From an uncultured Candidatus Actinomarina sp. (GTDB taxonomy: Bacteria > Actinomycetota > Acidimicrobiia > Actinomarinales > Actinomarinaceae): a stretch of DNA of 64,000 nt. This document shows positions 1 to 39,409 of the stretch, one piece after another. A program made the translations under genes and the position numbers. Numbering within the stretch: position 1 is the stretch's first letter; every line of letters starts with the position of its first letter. The stretch spans positions 86,654 through 150,653 of the forward strand of contig CACJPC010000001.1 of NCBI GenBank assembly GCA_902595195.1. The letters run 5' to 3'. The notes beneath the pieces were generated by a model. That model saw only the letters and a list, made by a program, of their open reading frames with translations, was not told where the DNA came from and made no database searches.

Positions 1-444
1 GCCGAAAAATAAATCTGCTGAAGTTCCAATAGTTATAATTAACGCACCGAAGATTGATAAGATTTCATATACTGGACGAAAGATACCAGTACCTCTTAAA
101 GTTAGTCCATAAATTAATGAGTTAAATGCCCAAAAAAAGTACATTGGTAAAAAACCCTCTTCAACTATGGTGAGTTCAAGAAATGTACCTATGATAATGA
201 CTGTTGCCAGTCCTGATGAAGCCATTTTCCAATACTCTGGAACATGTCCTTCAGCTAGATAATATCCAGCAATAACTATTGATAAGAGCGAGAATCCCCA
301 GAAGAAATTTAGCAAATCTTCAACAGCATCTAATGCTGTAGTTCCTGAAAGCTCTGCTCCAATAAATACTATATTGATGACCAAAAAGAATAGGGCATTC
401 TGCCTAGACAGTTCACCAATTGGCTGTGTAAAGAATTTTTTCAT
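1..444 (-). CDS. polytopic membrane protein, unknown family (N-terminal part only; gene runs off the left edge)
   Basis: Absent from the ORF track because it is open at the window edge. Manual minus-strand translation from ATG 444-442 gives MKKFFTQPIGELSRQNALFFLVINIVFIGAELSGTT... A GGAAGG Shine-Dalgarno lies upstream. The frame stays open to position 1 and contains several hydrophobic helices. Confidence 0.6.
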   Translation of the reverse strand, partial: MKKFFTQPIGELSRQNALFFLVINIVFIGAELSGTTALDAVEDLLNFFWGFSLLSIVIAGYYLAEGHVPEYWKMASSGLATVIIIGTFLELTIVEEGFLPMYFFWAFNSLIYGLTLRGTGIFRPVYEILSIFGALIITIGTSADLFFG

Positions 445-3585: not shown

Positions 3586-6201
3586 TTACTCGTAGGAGAT
3601 AGCTTCAAGTATATTTTGTCTTGCTGCCCTAATAGCAGGAAGTATTGCTGCAATTACTCCAGCAATTATTGCAATTCCAATCCACAATAATGTTTGCGGC
3701 ACAGAAACGGCAAATACTGTAAAGCCCTCATCAGCTAATGTCTGAATTAAGCTCCATGCAAAGAATATTCCTAATCCAGTACCCAGAGCTGCGCCAAATA
3801 TTGAAATAATGGAAGATTCAATAAATATCATTCTTCTTATTTGTTTTCTATAAGTTCCTATTGCTCTCATTAGTCCTATCTCCCTAGTTCTTTCATACAC
3901 CGATAAAGAGAGTGTGTTTGTAATACCAAATAGAGCTACAAAAATAGATATGGAAAGAAATCCATAAATTACGTTAAGAAGTAATTGTATTTGATTATTA
4001 GCTTCTTCAACTAAACCATCTTCATCTCTTACTTCAACTCCGGGGTATTCATCAACAATTGCGTTTATTTTCTGTTCTAATTCCGGAGTTTTTTTACTTA
4101 CGTTGAAATACAATTCTGTATCAAGCGATTCGTCAGCAAAAAAAGTATTGTTTTCAAGAAGTACAAAAAACTCAGCAGGTGGTTGAGTGGTCCAGTCAAA
4201 AATATAGGTGACAGTAAAAGTTCTTTCTCCTTCTTCAGGAATTGTTAGTACAACCTCATCTCCTACAAAAAGTTCTTCTCTTTCAGCAGTTTGTTTAAGT
4301 ATTCCTATTGCATCTTTTTTAAGGAAGTCTTTTCTATTTCCAGATATATCGTCTGTTTTTACAAGGTCAAAGACAGTTTCGTCGACTGCACCGAGAATAA
4401 GGGGTCTTTGGTTGTACCCAACAACAGTTGCTCTTGTTCTCGAAAGTTTTGTTACTTCATCTAGCTCTAAAAGCTCTTCCGATAAACCTGTTGGAATTCC
4501 AGGAGAAACAAATACGTTAGAAGCGCTTACTTGATAATCAGCAAGTATTACTTCACTTATTAATGACTCTGCTTGAGCTTTAAATGAGGTGGTTATTACA
4601 TTTGCTAAAGATATCAATGTTAGTCCGATCATTAAAGCTGATGCTGTTGATGCAGTTCTTCGTGGAGTTCTCTTAGAATTCTCTGTTGCCAATTTACCAA
4701 GAATTCCAAACACTAGGTTATACGCTTTATCAAAAATGAAAACAAATGGCTTTGTAATCGATGGTGTAATAACAGAAATTCCAATAAATATTACACCTGC
4801 GCCAAATCCTACTTGCTGCAAAGAAGATAGAGTCGGAAGATCTAGGAAATCGTATAACACTCCAAACAACATACCAAACCCAACAACAGAAATAAGCGAG
4901 CCAAAAACTAAACGTATAAACAAGGATTTTCTTCTAGGGGTTGAGACACTATCTCTAATCGCTTCCATTGGGCTTACCTGGGAGGCTTTTCTAGCTGGCA
5001 ATAAAGAAGACAAGATAGTAACAGTTATTCCGATAATTAATCCTGTTATTGCAGCTTCTGTAGTTAAGACTAATGGTCCATCTGGTAATCCAAACTCGAA
5101 ATACTGCAGTCCTTCCTTCACTGCAATCGCCAAACCAATACCAAGTGCTATCCCTAATCCAGATCCTATTACAGACATAAATAAGGACTCAGATATTACT
5201 AATCTGTAAATTTGTCTTTTTGAGGTACCAAGAGCTCTAAGAAGTGAAAGTTCTTTTGTTCTTTGAAGCAAAAGAATTCTAAATGTATTTTGAATGATAA
5301 AAGCGCCAACAAATATTGCGATACCAGCAAATACATTAAGTATCGTATTAAAAAAATCAAGACCTTGTTTAATTGAATCAGCTTGTTCTGCTGCAGCTTC
5401 TTGAGCATTAATTACATTTAAATTTTCTGAATCTAGGTTAGTAATTTCAGTTTTCACATCATTAATATCAAAATTATTTTCGATTACTACATTAATGAGA
5501 TCCACTTCTCCTCTTGAATCTAGTAATTTTTGAGCAGTTCTAAATTCGAATAGAGCAAAGGTTGCACCTCCTGGAGCACCTACATTAGCAAACTCTGCAA
5601 TTCCAACAATCGTAAATGATGCAGGAGTTGCACCAGCCAAAACAGTTACCCTATCTCCAACTGTAAAGTCATGATTTTCAGCAGTCACAACATCCATAAC
5701 AACTTCTTTTGTATTAGTTGGGGGTTCTCCTTCTACTAAAGACCATTGCTGTGCATAAGGGTTGCTATCCCAAGCGGCACCAAATGTAGGAGCAAACCCG
5801 TTAGAGATTAATACTGTTTCTCCATCAACAATTTTTATAAATTGTGCAAATCCTAGTACTTCACCCCAAGCAGCTTTTACACTTGGTAAATTTGAAATCT
5901 CCTCAATTCTTTCATCGGGTATTTTTTTAACTTCAAAAGAGATTGGTCCTTGTCCACCGTCGCCACTAAAACCCTCAGCAAAATCTTCTTGTATTGGCTG
6001 TACTACTAAGTCGACTCCCTCATAAATACCTGAGAATAAGTTATCGAATGCGGATTTATTGCTTTCCGAAAAAATATTTGAAGCAATAATGACTGCGACG
6101 CCAAGAATGATTGATGAAGTTGTTAAAAATATTCTGACTGGATAGGTTTTTAAATTTTTCCAGGCTATCAGAAATAGAGGGCGTTTTGTAAATCCAAACA
6201 T
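3586..6201 (-). CDS. ABC transporter permease, duplicated FtsX/MacB-type (871 aa)
   Basis: ORF track. Two FtsX-like 4-TM modules, each preceded by a large extracytoplasmic domain. Its start is adjacent to the stop of the ATPase gene upstream (shared position 6201). Confidence 0.85.
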   Translation of the reverse strand: MFGFTKRPLFLIAWKNLKTYPVRIFLTTSSIILGVAVIIASNIFSESNKSAFDNLFSGIYEGVDLVVQPIQEDFAEGFSGDGGQGPISFEVKKIPDERIEEISNLPSVKAAWGEVLGFAQFIKIVDGETVLISNGFAPTFGAAWDSNPYAQQWSLVEGEPPTNTKEVVMDVVTAENHDFTVGDRVTVLAGATPASFTIVGIAEFANVGAPGGATFALFEFRTAQKLLDSRGEVDLINVVIENNFDINDVKTEITNLDSENLNVINAQEAAAEQADSIKQGLDFFNTILNVFAGIAIFVGAFIIQNTFRILLLQRTKELSLLRALGTSKRQIYRLVISESLFMSVIGSGLGIALGIGLAIAVKEGLQYFEFGLPDGPLVLTTEAAITGLIIGITVTILSSLLPARKASQVSPMEAIRDSVSTPRRKSLFIRLVFGSLISVVGFGMLFGVLYDFLDLPTLSSLQQVGFGAGVIFIGISVITPSITKPFVFIFDKAYNLVFGILGKLATENSKRTPRRTASTASALMIGLTLISLANVITTSFKAQAESLISEVILADYQVSASNVFVSPGIPTGLSEELLELDEVTKLSRTRATVVGYNQRPLILGAVDETVFDLVKTDDISGNRKDFLKKDAIGILKQTAEREELFVGDEVVLTIPEEGERTFTVTYIFDWTTQPPAEFFVLLENNTFFADESLDTELYFNVSKKTPELEQKINAIVDEYPGVEVRDEDGLVEEANNQIQLLLNVIYGFLSISIFVALFGITNTLSLSVYERTREIGLMRAIGTYRKQIRRMIFIESSIISIFGAALGTGLGIFFAWSLIQTLADEGFTVFAVSVPQTLLWIGIAIIAGVIAAILPAIRAARQNILEAISYE

Positions 6202-6929
6202 TAGATGTTAGTTAAAGCCGTAACCTCTGCAACAATTTCTTCTTGTGTTGGTTGGTCTAAATCGCTAGCAATTCTTCCATCTTTCAACATTATTACTCTG
6301 TTGGCGTAAGAAGCAGCATAGGGATCATGAGTAACCATTATTATTGTTTGGTTAAGCTCTTCAACAACAGACTTCATAAAACTTAAAAGCTCTTTACTTG
6401 ACTTAGAGTCTAAATTTCCTGAAGGTTCGTCTGCAAATATTACTTCTGGTTTTGTTGCCATAGCCCTAGCTGCCGCTACTCGTTGCTGTTGTCCCCCTGA
6501 AAGCTCGTTAGGTCGATGTGATAATCTATCTCCAATATCTACAGTTTCAACAACTTGCTTTACCCAATCCATATCTGGCTTTCGTCCAGCAATTGATGCA
6601 GGTAGTGTAATGTTTTCTTCCGCGGTTAGAGTTGGAATTAAGTTAAAAGCCTGAAATACAAATCCAAAACTATCTCTCCTGATTTTTGTTAGTTGCTTAT
6701 CGTTTAGAGTTGAAATATCTTCTTCTTTTAAAAATATTTGTCCTGATGTGGGCCTGTCTAATCCAGCTAAACAGTGAAGAAGTGTTGATTTACCCGAGCC
6801 AGATGGACCCATGATTGCTGTGAATTCGTTTTCTTTAAATTCAACATTAATGTTGTCAAGTGCTGTGACACTTGTTTCTTTCTCTCCATAAATTTTTGTT
6901 AAATTTACTGAATGAATTATTTTATTCAT
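6201..6929 (-). CDS. ABC transporter ATP-binding protein (MacB/LolD-like)
   Basis: Walker A GPSGSGKST, signature LSGGQQQRV and Walker B IFADEPSGNLD are present. The track ORF extends to 7019, but the ATG at 6929 (MNKIIHSVNLTKIYG) gives the normal N-terminus. Confidence 0.9.
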   Translation of the reverse strand: MNKIIHSVNLTKIYGEKETSVTALDNINVEFKENEFTAIMGPSGSGKSTLLHCLAGLDRPTSGQIFLKEEDISTLNDKQLTKIRRDSFGFVFQAFNLIPTLTAEENITLPASIAGRKPDMDWVKQVVETVDIGDRLSHRPNELSGGQQQRVAAARAMATKPEVIFADEPSGNLDSKSSKELLSFMKSVVEELNQTIIMVTHDPYAASYANRVIMLKDGRIASDLDQPTQEEIVAEVTALTNI

Positions 6930-7005
6930 GAGTCCAATACTAGGTTGCAGATAGATATATGATATTTTCGTATTTTCTGTTAACAAAAAATTTACAAATA
7001 AAATT

Positions 7006-7033
7006 TTGAAAATTTTCAATTTACCTCTACATT
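7006..7033 (+). promoter_or_regulatory. candidate promoter (TTGAAA - 16 nt - TACATT) for a leaderless trp leader transcript
   Basis: TTGAAA at 7006-7011 and TACATT at 7028-7033. The leader ATG at 7041 starts 7 nt after the -10 hexamer, and there is no Shine-Dalgarno before the leader ORF. Confidence 0.35.
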
Positions 7034-7040
7034 TATAACA

Positions 7041-7085
7041 ATGTATAAAGTAACAAACTGGAACTGGTGGATTCTACATATGTAG
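7041..7085 (+). CDS. trpL: Trp-rich leader peptide MYKVTNWNWWILHM (attenuation leader)
   Basis: ATG TAT AAA GTA ACA AAC TGG AAC TGG TGG ATT CTA CAT ATG TAG read directly. It has three Trp codons within four codons, followed by a terminator hairpin and then a TrpB-family gene. Confidence 0.6.
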   Translation: MYKVTNWNWWILHM

Positions 7086-7110
7086 GTGCCTAGTTCTATG
7101 TTGTTTTCTT

Positions 7111-7136
7111 AAGCCGGGCACAGCCCGGTTTTTTTT
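7111..7136 (+). terminator. rho-independent terminator/attenuator upstream of trpB2
   Basis: AAG-CCGGGC-ACA-GCCCGG-TTT forms a 6-bp all-GC stem, extendable to 9 bp, followed by a run of eight T (7129-7136). The AGGAGG Shine-Dalgarno and the trpB2 ATG (7151) follow. Confidence 0.75.
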
Positions 7137-7150
7137 ATTTAGGAGGAAAA

Positions 7151-8506
7151 ATGACAGAACAATATAAATTTTTACTATCAGAATCTGAGATGCCAAAAAG
7201 GTGGTACAACATTGTGCCTGATTTACCAAGTCCTTTACCTCCACCGTTAAACCCTCAAACTATGGAGCCAATTGGACCTGAAGATCTTGCACCTTTATTT
7301 CCAATGGGATTAATACTGCAAGAAGTGTCTCAGGATTCATATATAGACATACCCCAACCAGTTCTTGACCTATATAAGCTATATAGGCCTTCCCCTTTGT
7401 TTAGAGCGGTTCGGCTCGAAAAAGCTCTCGGAACAAATTCGAGAATATATTACAAATACGAAGGTGGTTCCCCATCTGGCTCGCATAAGCCAAACACTGC
7501 AATCCCCCAAGCGTTTTACAACGCGGAAGAAGGTGTTAAAAAAATGGTTACAGAAACTGGTGCGGGTCAGTGGGGTTCTGCTTTAGCATTTGCTTGTCAG
7601 GCTTTTGATATTGAACTTGAAGTTTTTCAAGTTGCTGCATCTTATCTAGCTAAACCTTATAGAAAAACAATGATGGAGATCTACGGTGCAACTGTACATT
7701 CAAGCCCTTCGGAGAGAACGGATATAGGTAAAAAGTTTTTATCTGAGGATCCAGAAACTCCTGGAAGCTTAGGTATTGCTATTTCAGAAGCAATAGAGGT
7801 TGCAGCTAAGGATGAAAAAACTCGATATGCACTAGGAAGTGTTTTAAATCATGTACTAATGCATCAAACCATTATTGGGGAAGAGGCTCTAAAACAAATT
7901 GATTTAGCTGGAGACTATCCGGATGTAATAGTTGGATGTACTGGTGGAGGTTCAAATTTCGCCGGTCTGTTTACACCTTTTGCAAGAGAAAATATGCAAA
8001 ATAATAAATCTACTGTTATTAGAGCTGTTGAACCTGAGGCTTGTCCATCTTTGACTAAGGGAACGTATGCATATGATTTTGGAGACTCAGTAGGAATGGC
8101 TCCTGTAGTCAAAATGCATACCCTTGGTCATTCTTTTGTACCTGATCCTATCCATGCAGGAGGTTTAAGGTATCACGGAATGGCACCTTTGGTAAGTGCA
8201 ATGTACGAAGAGAAGTTGATTGAAGCAGAAGCAATTGGACAGAAAGAGTGTTTTGAAGCAGGTCAATTGTTTGCGAAAACTGAAGGTATAGTTCCAGCTC
8301 CCGAAGCTACACATGCAATAGCATCGGCAATACGAGCAGCGAAAAATGCAGATACAAACTCTGAATCAATTGCAGTATTGACTGCTATGTGTGGTCACGG
8401 ACACTTTGATATGCAGGCGTATAGTAATTTCCTATCAGGAGAAATGGTAGATTACGAATTTCCTGCTGAAAAAGTAAAAATAGCAAAGGAGTCAATTAAG
8501 TCTTAG
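7151..8506 (+). CDS. trpB2: TrpB-like pyridoxal-phosphate enzyme, long TrpB2 type (tryptophan synthase beta-like)
   Basis: ORF track, 451 aa. It has the N-terminal extension MPKRWYNIVPDLP...PP typical of TrpB2 and a PLP-lysine region GGSPSGSHKPNTA. No trpA or other trp genes are nearby. Confidence 0.85.
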   Translation: MTEQYKFLLSESEMPKRWYNIVPDLPSPLPPPLNPQTMEPIGPEDLAPLFPMGLILQEVSQDSYIDIPQPVLDLYKLYRPSPLFRAVRLEKALGTNSRIYYKYEGGSPSGSHKPNTAIPQAFYNAEEGVKKMVTETGAGQWGSALAFACQAFDIELEVFQVAASYLAKPYRKTMMEIYGATVHSSPSERTDIGKKFLSEDPETPGSLGIAISEAIEVAAKDEKTRYALGSVLNHVLMHQTIIGEEALKQIDLAGDYPDVIVGCTGGGSNFAGLFTPFARENMQNNKSTVIRAVEPEACPSLTKGTYAYDFGDSVGMAPVVKMHTLGHSFVPDPIHAGGLRYHGMAPLVSAMYEEKLIEAEAIGQKECFEAGQLFAKTEGIVPAPEATHAIASAIRAAKNADTNSESIAVLTAMCGHGHFDMQAYSNFLSGEMVDYEFPAEKVKIAKESIKS

Positions 8507-8959
8507 AGTGGTTATCTCCTTCCACTCTGAAACCTTTGGTCCTGTCTTGTAAAGAGACAGTGTATCAAAAGAAATAGTTATAGGGATGAGTTCATTAAGC
8601 TCCCCCAAGTCAAAAGATTTGGGTAACTCATCCCCGTAACTTAAAGAAAGATGAGGTACCCAAAAACTTGGCCAACCTTCTATTTTTGAAACAGAGTTAA
8701 AAAAATAGGAATTGTCTGAAGATTCAAGATATAGTCTTTGAAGATATGTGTCTCCCGTAGATATTTTGTCAAAGTTAATAATACATTTTTCATTGGAAAG
8801 CAGTTTTAAAGTATTCATTGCTGTTTCGTAAGTAGAAATTTTCGTTACTAGGGTTACATGTGGAAAAAATGAGTCTTTTCCTTCTTCTTTTGCAAATCTT
8901 TTAATCAAGTCATATATTTCTTTATTGTGTTTGGTGCTTTGAAGCCAAATCGAATACAT
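8492..8959 (-). CDS. 2H phosphoesterase superfamily protein (cyclic phosphodiesterase / RNA-ligase-like)
   Basis: ORF track. Two H-x-T/S-x motifs are present: FPHVTLVT and VPHLSLSY. Confidence 0.65.
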   Translation of the reverse strand: MYSIWLQSTKHNKEIYDLIKRFAKEEGKDSFFPHVTLVTKISTYETAMNTLKLLSNEKCIINFDKISTGDTYLQRLYLESSDNSYFFNSVSKIEGWPSFWVPHLSLSYGDELPKSFDLGELNELIPITISFDTLSLYKTGPKVSEWKEITTLRLN

Positions 8960-10616: not shown

Positions 10617-11645
10617 TTAATCAGTATTTGTTAAATTCTCCACAATTAATTCCACAGCAGTCATTAAAAACTCTGGATAGGTTTGACCAGGCCTTAAGGT
10701 CTCTACCCATAAGCCTTCTACAGCTTTTATTCCTGTCTCAGCGACAATTGTTTCAGCGTAAACAGATGGGGCTTCTGCCTCAATAAAGATCACCTTTATA
10801 TTATTATCTTCAATTACATCAATTACACCAACAAGTTGTGCTGGTGAAATCTCGTTTGAAGAATCTAAATCAGGAATAATTGTGGATAATACTTCAAGTC
10901 CAAACTTAGCTTCCAAATAACCTAAAGACTCATGTGTAGTTATGAGCTTTCTGTTTTGAGAAGGTACTGAAGAAATTAATTCAGATACCTGATTAACTAA
11001 CCCTTTTAGTTCAGTCACATAAGCAGATCCTGCTGCTTCATAGTCAGAGGCATTACTTGGGTCAAACTCAACTAATTTTGACTCTATAAACTCTGCTGCA
11101 TAAGCAACTCTGTTCGGATCGAACCAAAAGTGAGGGTCATATGCTCCATGGTTGTGGCCGTCATGGTCATCATGTCCCTCTTCGTCATGGTCATCATGTC
11201 CCTCTTCGTCATGGTCATCATGTCCCTTTTCACCGTGGTGGTCGTCATGACCGCCTTCTTTAAACTCTATTGGAAAAACATTTTCTCCAACTTCTGCTAA
11301 AGCTTCTGCACCACAAACTGAATTTTCAAGAAGTTCAATTAATGGAGCTGGCTCATACATTAACCCTGTGTAGAAAACTAGATCTGCATCAGCTATTTTC
11401 CCAGCATCTTGAGGGGCTGGTTCGTACGTATGGGGATCAGCCTCAGGCGGCATTAAAACTGTAAGGTTTATATTGTCTCCACCTACTTGGCTAACGAATT
11501 CTCCAATCATTGGTGTAGTTGCTACAACATTAATCTCTCTTCCATCTATTTCAGGACAACCTGCCTCAGCGCTTCCACCGGAGCAAGCTATCAACACTAA
11601 TGAAAGTGCGATCACACCAAATCTAAAACTTAGTTTATTTTTCAA
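10617..11645 (-). CDS. znuA: metal ABC transporter substrate-binding lipoprotein with His/Asp-rich loop (ZnuA-like)
   Basis: TTG start with an AAGGAGA Shine-Dalgarno and a lipobox LIAC. TroA/ZnuA-like fold motifs are present, plus the loop HDDHHGEKGHDDHDEEGHDDHDEEGHDDHDGHNHG that is characteristic of zinc-specific ZnuA. Confidence 0.8.
   Translation of the reverse strand: MKNKLSFRFGVIALSLVLIACSGGSAEAGCPEIDGREINVVATTPMIGEFVSQVGGDNINLTVLMPPEADPHTYEPAPQDAGKIADADLVFYTGLMYEPAPLIELLENSVCGAEALAEVGENVFPIEFKEGGHDDHHGEKGHDDHDEEGHDDHDEEGHDDHDGHNHGAYDPHFWFDPNRVAYAAEFIESKLVEFDPSNASDYEAAGSAYVTELKGLVNQVSELISSVPSQNRKLITTHESLGYLEAKFGLEVLSTIIPDLDSSNEISPAQLVGVIDVIEDNNIKVIFIEAEAPSVYAETIVAETGIKAVEGLWVETLRPGQTYPEFLMTAVELIVENLTNTD
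11160..11229 (-). repeat. 24-bp in-frame tandem repeat encoding the EEGHDDHD units of the ZnuA His-rich loop
   Basis: GTCATGGTCATCATGTCCCTCTTC is repeated about 2.5 times on the plus strand. It is a coding repeat, not a CRISPR array. Confidence 0.85.
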
Positions 11646-39223: not shown

Positions 39224-39242
39224 TCTGCTACTATTCATCAAG

Positions 39243-39323
39243 AATAATGGAGCGAAGTTAGTGAAAGTCTAACACTGTCCCGCAACTGTAATTCGAAAGA
39301 TAAGTCAGGTCGCCTTCATTATT
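39243..39323 (+). promoter_or_regulatory. cobalamin riboswitch, compact form without a long peripheral extension
   Basis: P1 is AATAATG (39243-49) paired with CATTATT (39317-23). The core is GGAGCGAAG..GTGAAAGTC..ACTGTCCCGCAACTGTAA, with a B12-box-like AAGTCAGGTCGCC. A BtuF-like gene lies downstream. Confidence 0.7.
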
Positions 39324-39409
39324 GTTAAGACAACAGTCCTCGAGAGAAGGAATGAAGTTTCTAGAAATTCTTGAAGTTTCTTTATTTTCTCAAGGTAAGA
39401 AAGGAAAAT

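Follow-up and report, generated by a model that had tools for sequence, protein, structure and literature searches.

The window analysed here is a stretch of 64,000 nucleotides (nt) from an uncultured Candidatus Actinomarina sp. (contig CACJPC010000001.1, positions 86,654 to 150,653). Immediately ahead of its trpB2 gene, which encodes a TrpB2-type enzyme resembling the tryptophan synthase beta chain, it carries an element that we read as a classical ribosome-mediated leader-peptide attenuator, which would sense charged tRNA-Trp and gate transcription into trpB2 alone; we put the probability of this reading at about 0.85. Judged by its sequence, the element belongs to a known class of attenuators; it is apparently leaderless, has an orphan trpB2 as its probable target and is restricted to Actinomarina. 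Its parts are arranged as follows, where ORF stands for open reading frame:

7006..7033, + strand: promoter, with the -35 box TTGAAA at 7006-7011, a 16-nt spacer and the -10 box TACATT at 7028-7033
7041..7085, + strand: trpL-like leader ORF of 14 codons, MYKVTNWNWWILHM and stop, with ATG at 7041 and TAG at 7083-7085
7059-61, 7065-67 and 7068-70, + strand: TGG sensor codons of the leader ORF, in the arrangement W-x-W-W
7048..7110, + strand: hairpin 1:2 (anti-antiterminator), with the Trp codons in the 5' arm at 7048-7069 and the 3' arm at 7086-7110
7074-77/7082-85, + strand: apical CUAC/GUAG stem of hairpin 1:2, which includes the leader stop codon
7086..7121, + strand: antiterminator 2:3, pairing GUGCCU 7086-91 with GGGCAC 7116-21 and AGU 7093-95 with AGC 7112-14
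7111..7136, + strand: intrinsic terminator 3:4, with the stem AAGCCGGGC/GCCCGGUUU at 7111-7119/7123-7131, the loop ACA at 7120-22 and T8 at 7129-7136
7141..7146, + strand: trpB2 Shine-Dalgarno AGGAGG, 4 nt past the T run and 4 nt ahead of the ATG at 7151
7151..8506, + strand: trpB2, a TrpB-like pyridoxal phosphate (PLP) enzyme of 451 aa, monocistronic

A first-pass annotation of the same letters had already placed the ORF, the terminator with its T8, the AGGAGG and the trpB2 ATG, together with the segments GAACTGG (7061-67), CCTAGTTC (7089-96), GTGCC (7086-90) and GGCAC (7117-21) that would pair in alternative ways, and each of these is right to the base. The promoter that it had described, TTGAAA-16-TACATT with the -10 box ending 7 nt ahead of the leader ATG, is likewise correctly located (7006-7033).

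The terminator stem has 9 pairs, 6 of them G-C, and the 115-nt leader folds with a minimum free energy (MFE) of -34.4 kcal/mol (z = -2.74). In this MFE fold the Trp codons pair with CCUAGUUC, apart from the terminator, which forms a hairpin of its own. The window has 3 occurrences of the motif TGGNNNTGGTGG, where 0.2 would be expected. As candidates for further W-rich ORFs, the remaining two sites were discarded, being out-of-frame Gly-Val-Gly-Gly codons within a monooxygenase-like and a peptidase-like gene; the leader ORF is the sole W-rich short ORF of the 64-kb window with a terminator after it. Thus, the excess of the motif, the singularity of the ORF, the z-score of the fold and the recurrence of the whole arrangement in at least 103 other loci exclude an origin by chance.

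Conservation was followed in a set composed of the window, 23 species-level Actinomarina loci and at least 80 metagenome-contig loci from a pattern scan, that is, at least 104 loci with 44 distinct leader sequences; the per-column pairing figures given below come from 43 distinct sequences. The short x-W-x-W-W ORF and the CCGGGC...GCCCGG-T7/8 terminator lie upstream of trpB2 in all 23 species-level loci, and the leader ORF is found in all 80 metagenomic loci among the matches listed. The leader ATG and the tandem WW codons are invariant across the 104 loci, every one of which also keeps an in-frame stop, the terminator and a hairpin burying the Trp codons. Elsewhere the ORF varies: a few sequences have L or F in place of the first W, N, S, H or R can stand between the Ws, and WW can be followed by I, T, K, S, M or N, leaving UGG as the sole invariant codon type. 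In one clade there is 1 extra nt after WW and the ORF closes 3 codons past WW (ending …WWSTT) instead of 4 (…WWILHM), with the shifted stop sitting within the same invariant CUACAUA.GUAG hairpin. As the C-terminal residues change while an ORF with Trp codons closing at the hairpin is kept, selection seems to act on the Trp codons and the ORF boundaries, and not on the peptide. By this comparison, the pattern is the signature of a sensor ORF rather than of a functional peptide or an incidental frame. The first-pass annotation had suggested comparing the regions upstream of trpB2, and the W-rich ORF and hairpin prove to be conserved over 104 Actinomarina loci; its view of a W-codon leader peptide as the sensor gains from the invariant ATG and WW, from a stop that survives a frameshifting indel and from the variation of the other codons.

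A comparable W-rich ORF was not found upstream of 57 TrpB2 loci from non-Actinomarina lineages (L024-L080), and the leader is therefore likely to be a lineage-specific trait of Actinomarina, not a general one of TrpB2 genes. A recurrent 'MASWMWM' upstream of Caldilineaceae trpB2 was set aside as an out-of-frame reading of the upstream thioredoxin-like gene. At one Anaerolineae locus (L077:2750-3003), a short ORF that has one Trp codon is followed by a strong hairpin resembling a terminator (…CGCTCTCGTCCC…GGGATGAGGGCGTTTTTTT), some 60 nt ahead of trpB2; the locus may hold an unrelated leader.

Each of the 43 distinct sequences has hairpin 1:2, which pairs 5-8 of the 9 Trp-codon bases. The three clades differ in the 3' arm of the hairpin, and several columns of the 5' arm show 2-3 canonical pair types (e.g. 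C-G in 29 sequences, A-U in 10 and U-G in 4). Compared with dinucleotide shuffles, the z-score of the hairpin ranges from -2 to -4.5 in 10 of 11 representatives, the exception (-0.7) being L138, one of the orphan leaders without trpB2 described below. RNAalifold on a plain MAFFT alignment was abandoned: the clades cannot be aligned with each other over the 3' arm of hairpin 1:2, and the apical stem and terminator were therefore all that it returned; pairing of this hairpin was scored instead from per-sequence folds mapped to the well-aligned 5' arm. Hairpin 1:2 is possibly also a pause hairpin. In the terminator, 99% of the cells are paired, and changes are only one-sided, to G-U or A-U.

The antiterminator, in which GUGCC(U/C) right after the stop codon pairs with GGGCAC across the 5' arm and loop of the terminator, cannot coexist with hairpin 1:2 or with the terminator. 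Folding with a masked ribosome footprint and without the terminator 3' arm yields it in every variant, at -5 to -16 kcal/mol; the value for the window, with region 1 masked and the same arm withheld, is -9.6 kcal/mol. On the alignment, 86% of the cells of this helix are paired, against 35-55% with the partner slid by 1-3 columns. At its pair 47:84, 34 sequences have G-C, 3 have C-G and 6 have a mismatch; as column 84 is a base of the terminator loop, the swap between G-C and C-G is not explicable by the terminator. Taken together, the comparison lends moderate support to the antiterminator. Modelled ribosome positions fit the classical scheme: a ribosome stalled with UGG 7065-70 in the A site would reach about 7083 and free 7086-95, while one at the leader stop codon would cover 7086-95. 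In the folding of alternatives that the first-pass annotation had proposed for its 1:2 / 2:3 / 3:4 layout, all three helices form, the first with covariation, the second in all variants under the modelled stall, with the terminator 3' arm withheld, and the third almost fully paired.

The trpB2 Shine-Dalgarno is kept as GGAG across all loci. A post-terminator element of about 35 nt, ACUGUCACUGAAAUUAAA(A/U)CUCCGGGC(U/C)(C/A)AACCC, which is absent from the window, occurs at L010:2948-3003 and, as equivalents, in clades B and C. It carries a second copy of CCGGGC, is kept at orphan loci too, and has a CUCC predicted to pair with this GGAG, which suggests an added translational layer.

Of 49 distinct sequences upstream of the leader, 46 have the promoter pattern TTGnnn-16/17-TAnnnT with the leader ATG 6-8 nt further on, although their spacers differ, against a background of 0.25% of all window ATGs for TTGnnn-16/17-TAnnnT-6..8-ATG; the pattern is also retained at orphan-leader loci. 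Ahead of the leader ATG the window sequence has no Shine-Dalgarno. This geometry indicates a leaderless leader ORF, with a transcription start that would lie at or beside A7041, and it supports the leaderless leader transcript that had been suggested from the window alone. Leaderless leader ORFs are known in mycobacteria (bioRxiv 10.1101/834739), and the trpL RNA of Sinorhizobium has been described as leaderless (PMC6614838). RNA-seq shows leader peptides at trpE, leuA, ilvB and aroF in C. glutamicum (PMC3890552), and a comparative analysis predicted trp attenuators of the classical type for Corynebacterium and Streptomyces (PMC1262725).

The gene behind the leader is a bona fide TrpB2 by family, with substrates that we infer from the same family membership. 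Its product scores 706.8 bits against the NCBIfam equivalog NF009057 (cut-off 366; profile positions 2-440 of 441) and 615 bits against TIGR01415, but 144.6 bits against the TrpB1 model TIGR00263, far under the cut-off of 392. The motifs GSHKPN and GCTGGGSNFAG are intact in the 451-aa protein; we take GSHKPN to be the PLP-lysine motif and GGGSN the phosphate-loop motif, as is general for fold-type II TrpB enzymes. The closest relatives in the PDB are three chains (E values of 2e-129 to 1e-112) deposited as tryptophan synthase beta chains, presumably the Sulfolobus TrpB2 enzymes. With this equivalog assignment and the monocistronic arrangement, the stand-alone TrpB2 gene of the first-pass annotation is borne out.

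All together, these observations allow us to propose how the element would work. The mRNA would start at or beside the A of the leader AUG and hence be leaderless, and a 70S ribosome would translate the 14 codons of the leader ORF. When Trp is plentiful, the ribosome would reach the UAG at 7083-85 and either cover GUGCCU 7086-91 or release so that hairpin 1:2 re-forms; the terminator (7111-7131 plus U8) would then form and an RNA of about 95 nt be released. When charged tRNA-Trp is scarce, the ribosome would stall at the tandem UGG 7065-70, holding the 5' arm of hairpin 1:2 and freeing 7086-7095, which would pair with 7112-7121 (terminator 5' arm and loop) before the 3' arm is made, and RNA polymerase would enter trpB2. 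TrpB2 would condense indole with serine, or phosphoserine, to Trp.

Where the indole would come from is suggested by published genomes. Two genome studies describe Actinomarina as auxotrophic for tryptophan, and one of them, on 84 complete genomes, reports tryptophan biosynthesis as absent (PMC7771536; bioRxiv 10.64898/2026.04.03.716425). The main text of neither study mentions trpB: tryptophan appears once in that of 2020 (PMC7771536), and the main text of the preprint (bioRxiv 10.64898/2026.04.03.716425) names neither tryptophan synthase nor indole. As Actinomarina is reported without the rest of the pathway, indole would have to be scavenged, and a TrpB2 induced by shortage of charged tRNA-Trp in such a genome points to salvage of exogenous indole. 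For the same reason, the suggestion in the first-pass annotation that this TrpB2 supplies Trp gains weight, and it seems a reasonable one.

Among the matches listed, the leader adjoins the same divergent ABC ATPase gene in 70 of the 76 metagenomic loci with sufficient upstream sequence. Leader and trpB2 also occur together after other genes, either one resembling short-chain dehydrogenases or an unidentified gene of 205 aa, and with a further gene of 158 aa inserted between the ATPase gene and the leader; with at least 4 genomic contexts for the unit, the leader travels with trpB2. The 80 metagenomic loci, again among the matches listed, divide into 58 with trpB2 directly downstream (one ending at the contig end) and 22 without it. 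In 4 of these 22 (L094, L113, L098 and L106) the leader, with the trpB2 ribosome-binding site, is fused to a gene for a 745-aa protein (e.g. L094:3714-5948, - strand) whose sole domain is a PEP-utilising mobile domain (PF00391). We considered this gene as a second regulated target and rejected it: its normal place is behind trpB2, as in L140, where it sits just past it, so that the fusion is a deletion product. The L098 fusion still keeps a remnant of the trpB2 start, namely the ribosome-binding site and the first codons.

The remaining 18 of the 22 are orphan leaders, which retain the promoter, the W-x-WW ORF, the hairpins, the terminator and the post-terminator element of about 35 nt:

Orphan loci: L085, L087, L105, L127, L115, L141, L091, L095, L101
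Orphan loci, continued: L108, L111 (e.g. L111:3101-3260), L119, L123, L124, L131, L138, L153, L159

At these loci a convergent CPDase-like gene ends about 45 nt past the post-terminator element, and there is no other same-strand downstream gene. Some of the loci without trpB2 are recent derivatives of relatives that have it, with leaders 96-98% identical. In contrast, a 12-locus orphan clade, clade C (MYK[LV]NNW[HR]WWSLH[RT]), is internally old. At synonymous third positions, its ATPase genes are 51-56% identical and its CPDase-like genes 66-75% (79% protein identity), whereas the leaders of the same pairs are 86-100% identical, one pair agreeing in 93 of 93 bases. The ATPase gene alone was discarded as a neutral yardstick for this constraint because its phylogeny is incongruent, and the downstream CPDase-like gene was added as a second flank. 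Indeed, the ATPase phylogeny disagrees with leader clade and with trpB2 presence: the ATPase genes of L002 (clade A, with trpB2) and L111 (a clade C orphan) have a synonymous identity of 0.88. This discord points to recombination, or else a flexible slot, right where the leader and trpB2 sit. The conserved orphan leaders may reflect either purifying selection for a function of their own or a narrow tract spread by recombination.

Several of these observations weigh against the attenuator reading. The 22 of 80 loci that keep a conserved leader without trpB2 imply that cis control of this gene is not the only reason for the leader to persist. With the ribosome masked and the full terminator present, the terminator is still the MFE fold, and the antiterminator never is; as the terminator wins at equilibrium, the switch must be kinetic. 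The switch of the E. coli trp attenuator is likewise kinetic. The antiterminator is backed mostly by plain conservation, with one compensatory pair that probably traces to a single event: 6 of the 43 sequences are mismatched at pair 47:84, and all three compensated (C-G) sequences come from loci without trpB2. The L008-type antiterminator is, in addition, weak (-5.1 kcal/mol). Finally, we infer from sequence the Trp-dependent read-through, the translation of the ORF, the stalling, the transcript start and the enzyme substrate, and the absence of other trp genes is taken from the literature on Actinomarina, not from this genome.

The orphan loci bear most directly on the first alternative, in which the leader has a dual function or acts mainly in trans: the RNA of about 95 nt (less likely the peptide) would be a regulator like rnTrpL/peTrpL of Sinorhizobium, and cis control of trpB2 only one of its jobs. 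The retention of the whole element at 18 loci with neither trpB2 nor another same-strand gene downstream, and the excess conservation of the clade C leaders over both flanks, are what such a function would leave behind, and trans action of a leaderless trp attenuator RNA has been documented (PMC6614838). However, owing to the frameshift the C-terminus of the peptide is not conserved between clades, and this speaks against the peptide being functional. Recombination occurs at the locus, as the ATPase and leader phylogenies tell, and a narrow recent tract could mimic constraint; several loci without trpB2 derive recently from relatives that carry it, as their leader identities and the L098 remnant testify, and genomes with orphan leaders might carry trpB2 elsewhere. 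We consider this alternative unlikely. With equally low odds, the Trp leader would be not only an attenuator but also a regulatory gene in its own right, its RNA reporting Trp-tRNA status and acting in trans, on uptake for instance or on further Trp-related mRNAs. If true, this would explain why lineages without trpB2 keep the promoter, ORF, alternative hairpins and terminator under constraint, and trpB2 would be an accessory indole-salvage cassette plugged into the sensor.

A structure-only attenuator, either a metabolite riboswitch or a TRAP- or T-box-like protein-binding leader in which the short ORF is incidental, is far less probable. The apical hairpin CUACAUA.GUAG and GUGCC are invariant at the nucleotide level, beyond the needs of a leader peptide alone, as such a device would have it. 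Yet the leader (6900-7250) reaches the gathering score of no Rfam family, including a permissive scan to E = 10 in which the best weak match had E = 0.048 and 20.6 bits against a gathering score of 111, and a permissive scan of an orphan leader gave no known family. There is no (G/U)AG triplet repeat array of the TRAP kind visible in the leader sequence, and neither a specifier loop nor a T-box motif. Moreover, the ATG, the in-frame WW and the stop all survive the indel, UGG is the one codon type held constant, and the promoter is placed so that the AUG would come first in the transcript, as it does in known leaderless leader ORFs. That the element is non-regulatory and its W-rich ORF fortuitous, the whole being either a decaying relic or a constitutive terminator or insulator that separates divergent from convergent operons, is the least plausible reading of all, for although the terminator remains where trpB2 is deleted and its hairpin has A's and T's on its flanks, a constitutive 9-bp/U8 terminator 14 nt ahead of the trpB2 start would silence a gene that is nevertheless intact (451 aa) in about 80 loci, the genes upstream lie on the opposite strand, the reverse strand has no U run in clade C, and conservation of the ORF, of WW and of the alternative pairings far exceeds chance.

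The leader-peptide attenuator that we favor has close counterparts in other bacteria. Like trpL of E. coli and Salmonella, it has a 14-codon leader with tandem Trp codons 3-4 codons ahead of the stop, Trp codons in the 5' arm of a 1:2 hairpin, and a strong 3:4 terminator with a U run, whose kinetic competitor would be a weaker 2:3 antiterminator. Unlike E. coli trpL, which controls trpEDCBA, it is leaderless, has no Shine-Dalgarno, uses W-x-W-W as its sensor and would control one TrpB2-type gene in a genome reported without the rest of the pathway; there is no sequence similarity between the two, and no TrpR operator is evident. With the actinobacterial trp attenuators (Corynebacterium trpL and the Streptomyces trpE leader; PMC1262725; PMC3890552) it shares the phylum and 2-3 UGG codons, and, as in that class (PMC1262725), it has a GC-rich poly-U terminator and a GC-rich triple common to antiterminator and terminator. 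This triple is GUGCC(U/C)/GGGCAC-CCGGGC/GCCCGG in Actinomarina, against gGCC-rGCy-GGCC in the actinobacterial attenuators (PMC1262725). Those attenuators serve full trp operons or trpS, whereas the target here is an orphan trpB2 in a streamlined Acidimicrobiia genome of about 33% GC. In the case of C. diphtheriae, 'trpB2A' (PMC1262725) is the name of a second trpB copy, not one shown to be of the TrpB2 family.

As in Sinorhizobium meliloti rnTrpL/peTrpL (PMC6614838; PMC7298713), a leaderless trpL attenuator could, at Trp sufficiency, accumulate a terminated RNA of about 100 nt, and the persistence of orphan leaders is as expected of a dual-function element of that kind. Trans action in Actinomarina is, however, hypothetical, the phylum is another one and there is no sequence similarity. 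The mycobacterial leaderless poly-Cys short ORFs (bioRxiv 10.1101/834739; PMC4633059) similarly sense one amino acid and control downstream genes; in a 2005 comparative analysis (PMC1262725) the mycobacterial cys leaders had no obvious terminator, whereas the Actinomarina leader has a canonical terminator and antiterminator. With regard to physiology, the nearest parallel is trpRBA of Chlamydia trachomatis (PMC7755916, PMC6504234), with the last Trp step only, use of exogenous indole and expression upon Trp shortage. Unlike in Actinomarina, the enzyme of C. trachomatis is TrpB1 with TrpA, under the TrpR and YtgR repressors.

The function of TrpB2 outside trp operons has long been debated. The leader would provide regulatory evidence for the role of a stand-alone TrpB2, since a gene switched on by uncharged tRNA-Trp is presumably there to make Trp. 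For Actinomarina, among the most abundant bacteria of the surface ocean, the published absence of tryptophan biosynthesis would then have to be qualified: many strains keep the last step, apparently under Trp control. In that case indole, or a related precursor, would be traded as a public good in the surface ocean, and the trait would be polymorphic, trpB2 missing at about a quarter of the sampled loci. Leaderless leader-peptide attenuation would also be extended to streamlined AT-rich Acidimicrobiia, and the conserved orphan leaders would offer a natural experiment on the functions that attenuator RNAs may have of their own.

The closest relatives of the window's TrpB2, at 84-96% protein identity, come from 23 species-level assemblies, 22 of them labelled Candidatus Actinomarina or OCS155; the next matches, at 68% identity or less, belong to other Actinobacteria, Chloroflexota and Bacteroidota. 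The remaining assembly is a short contig (L009, CAYVBV010000187.1, 2.7 kb) labelled 'uncultured Polynucleobacter sp.', which carries an Actinomarina-type leader and a trpB2 90% identical to that of the window, and its label is probably a binning error in the public record. The neighbors of leader and trpB2 in the window, beyond which (after the CPDase-like gene) a metal-type ABC transporter follows, are:

3586-6201, divergent: MacB-like permease, upstream of trpB2
6201-6932, divergent: ABC ATPase, upstream of trpB2
8492-8959, convergent: CPDase-like gene, downstream of trpB2

Two further observations concern other parts of the window. An AdoCbl (cobalamin) riboswitch lies at 39227-39363 on the + strand (Rfam RF01482, 58.4 bits against a gathering score of 50), and a short frame at 11152-11250 on the + strand, LWPSWSSCPSSSWSSCPSSSWSSCP…, indicates a tandem repeat of about 24 nt that lies within or close to a gene read in another frame or from the opposite strand.

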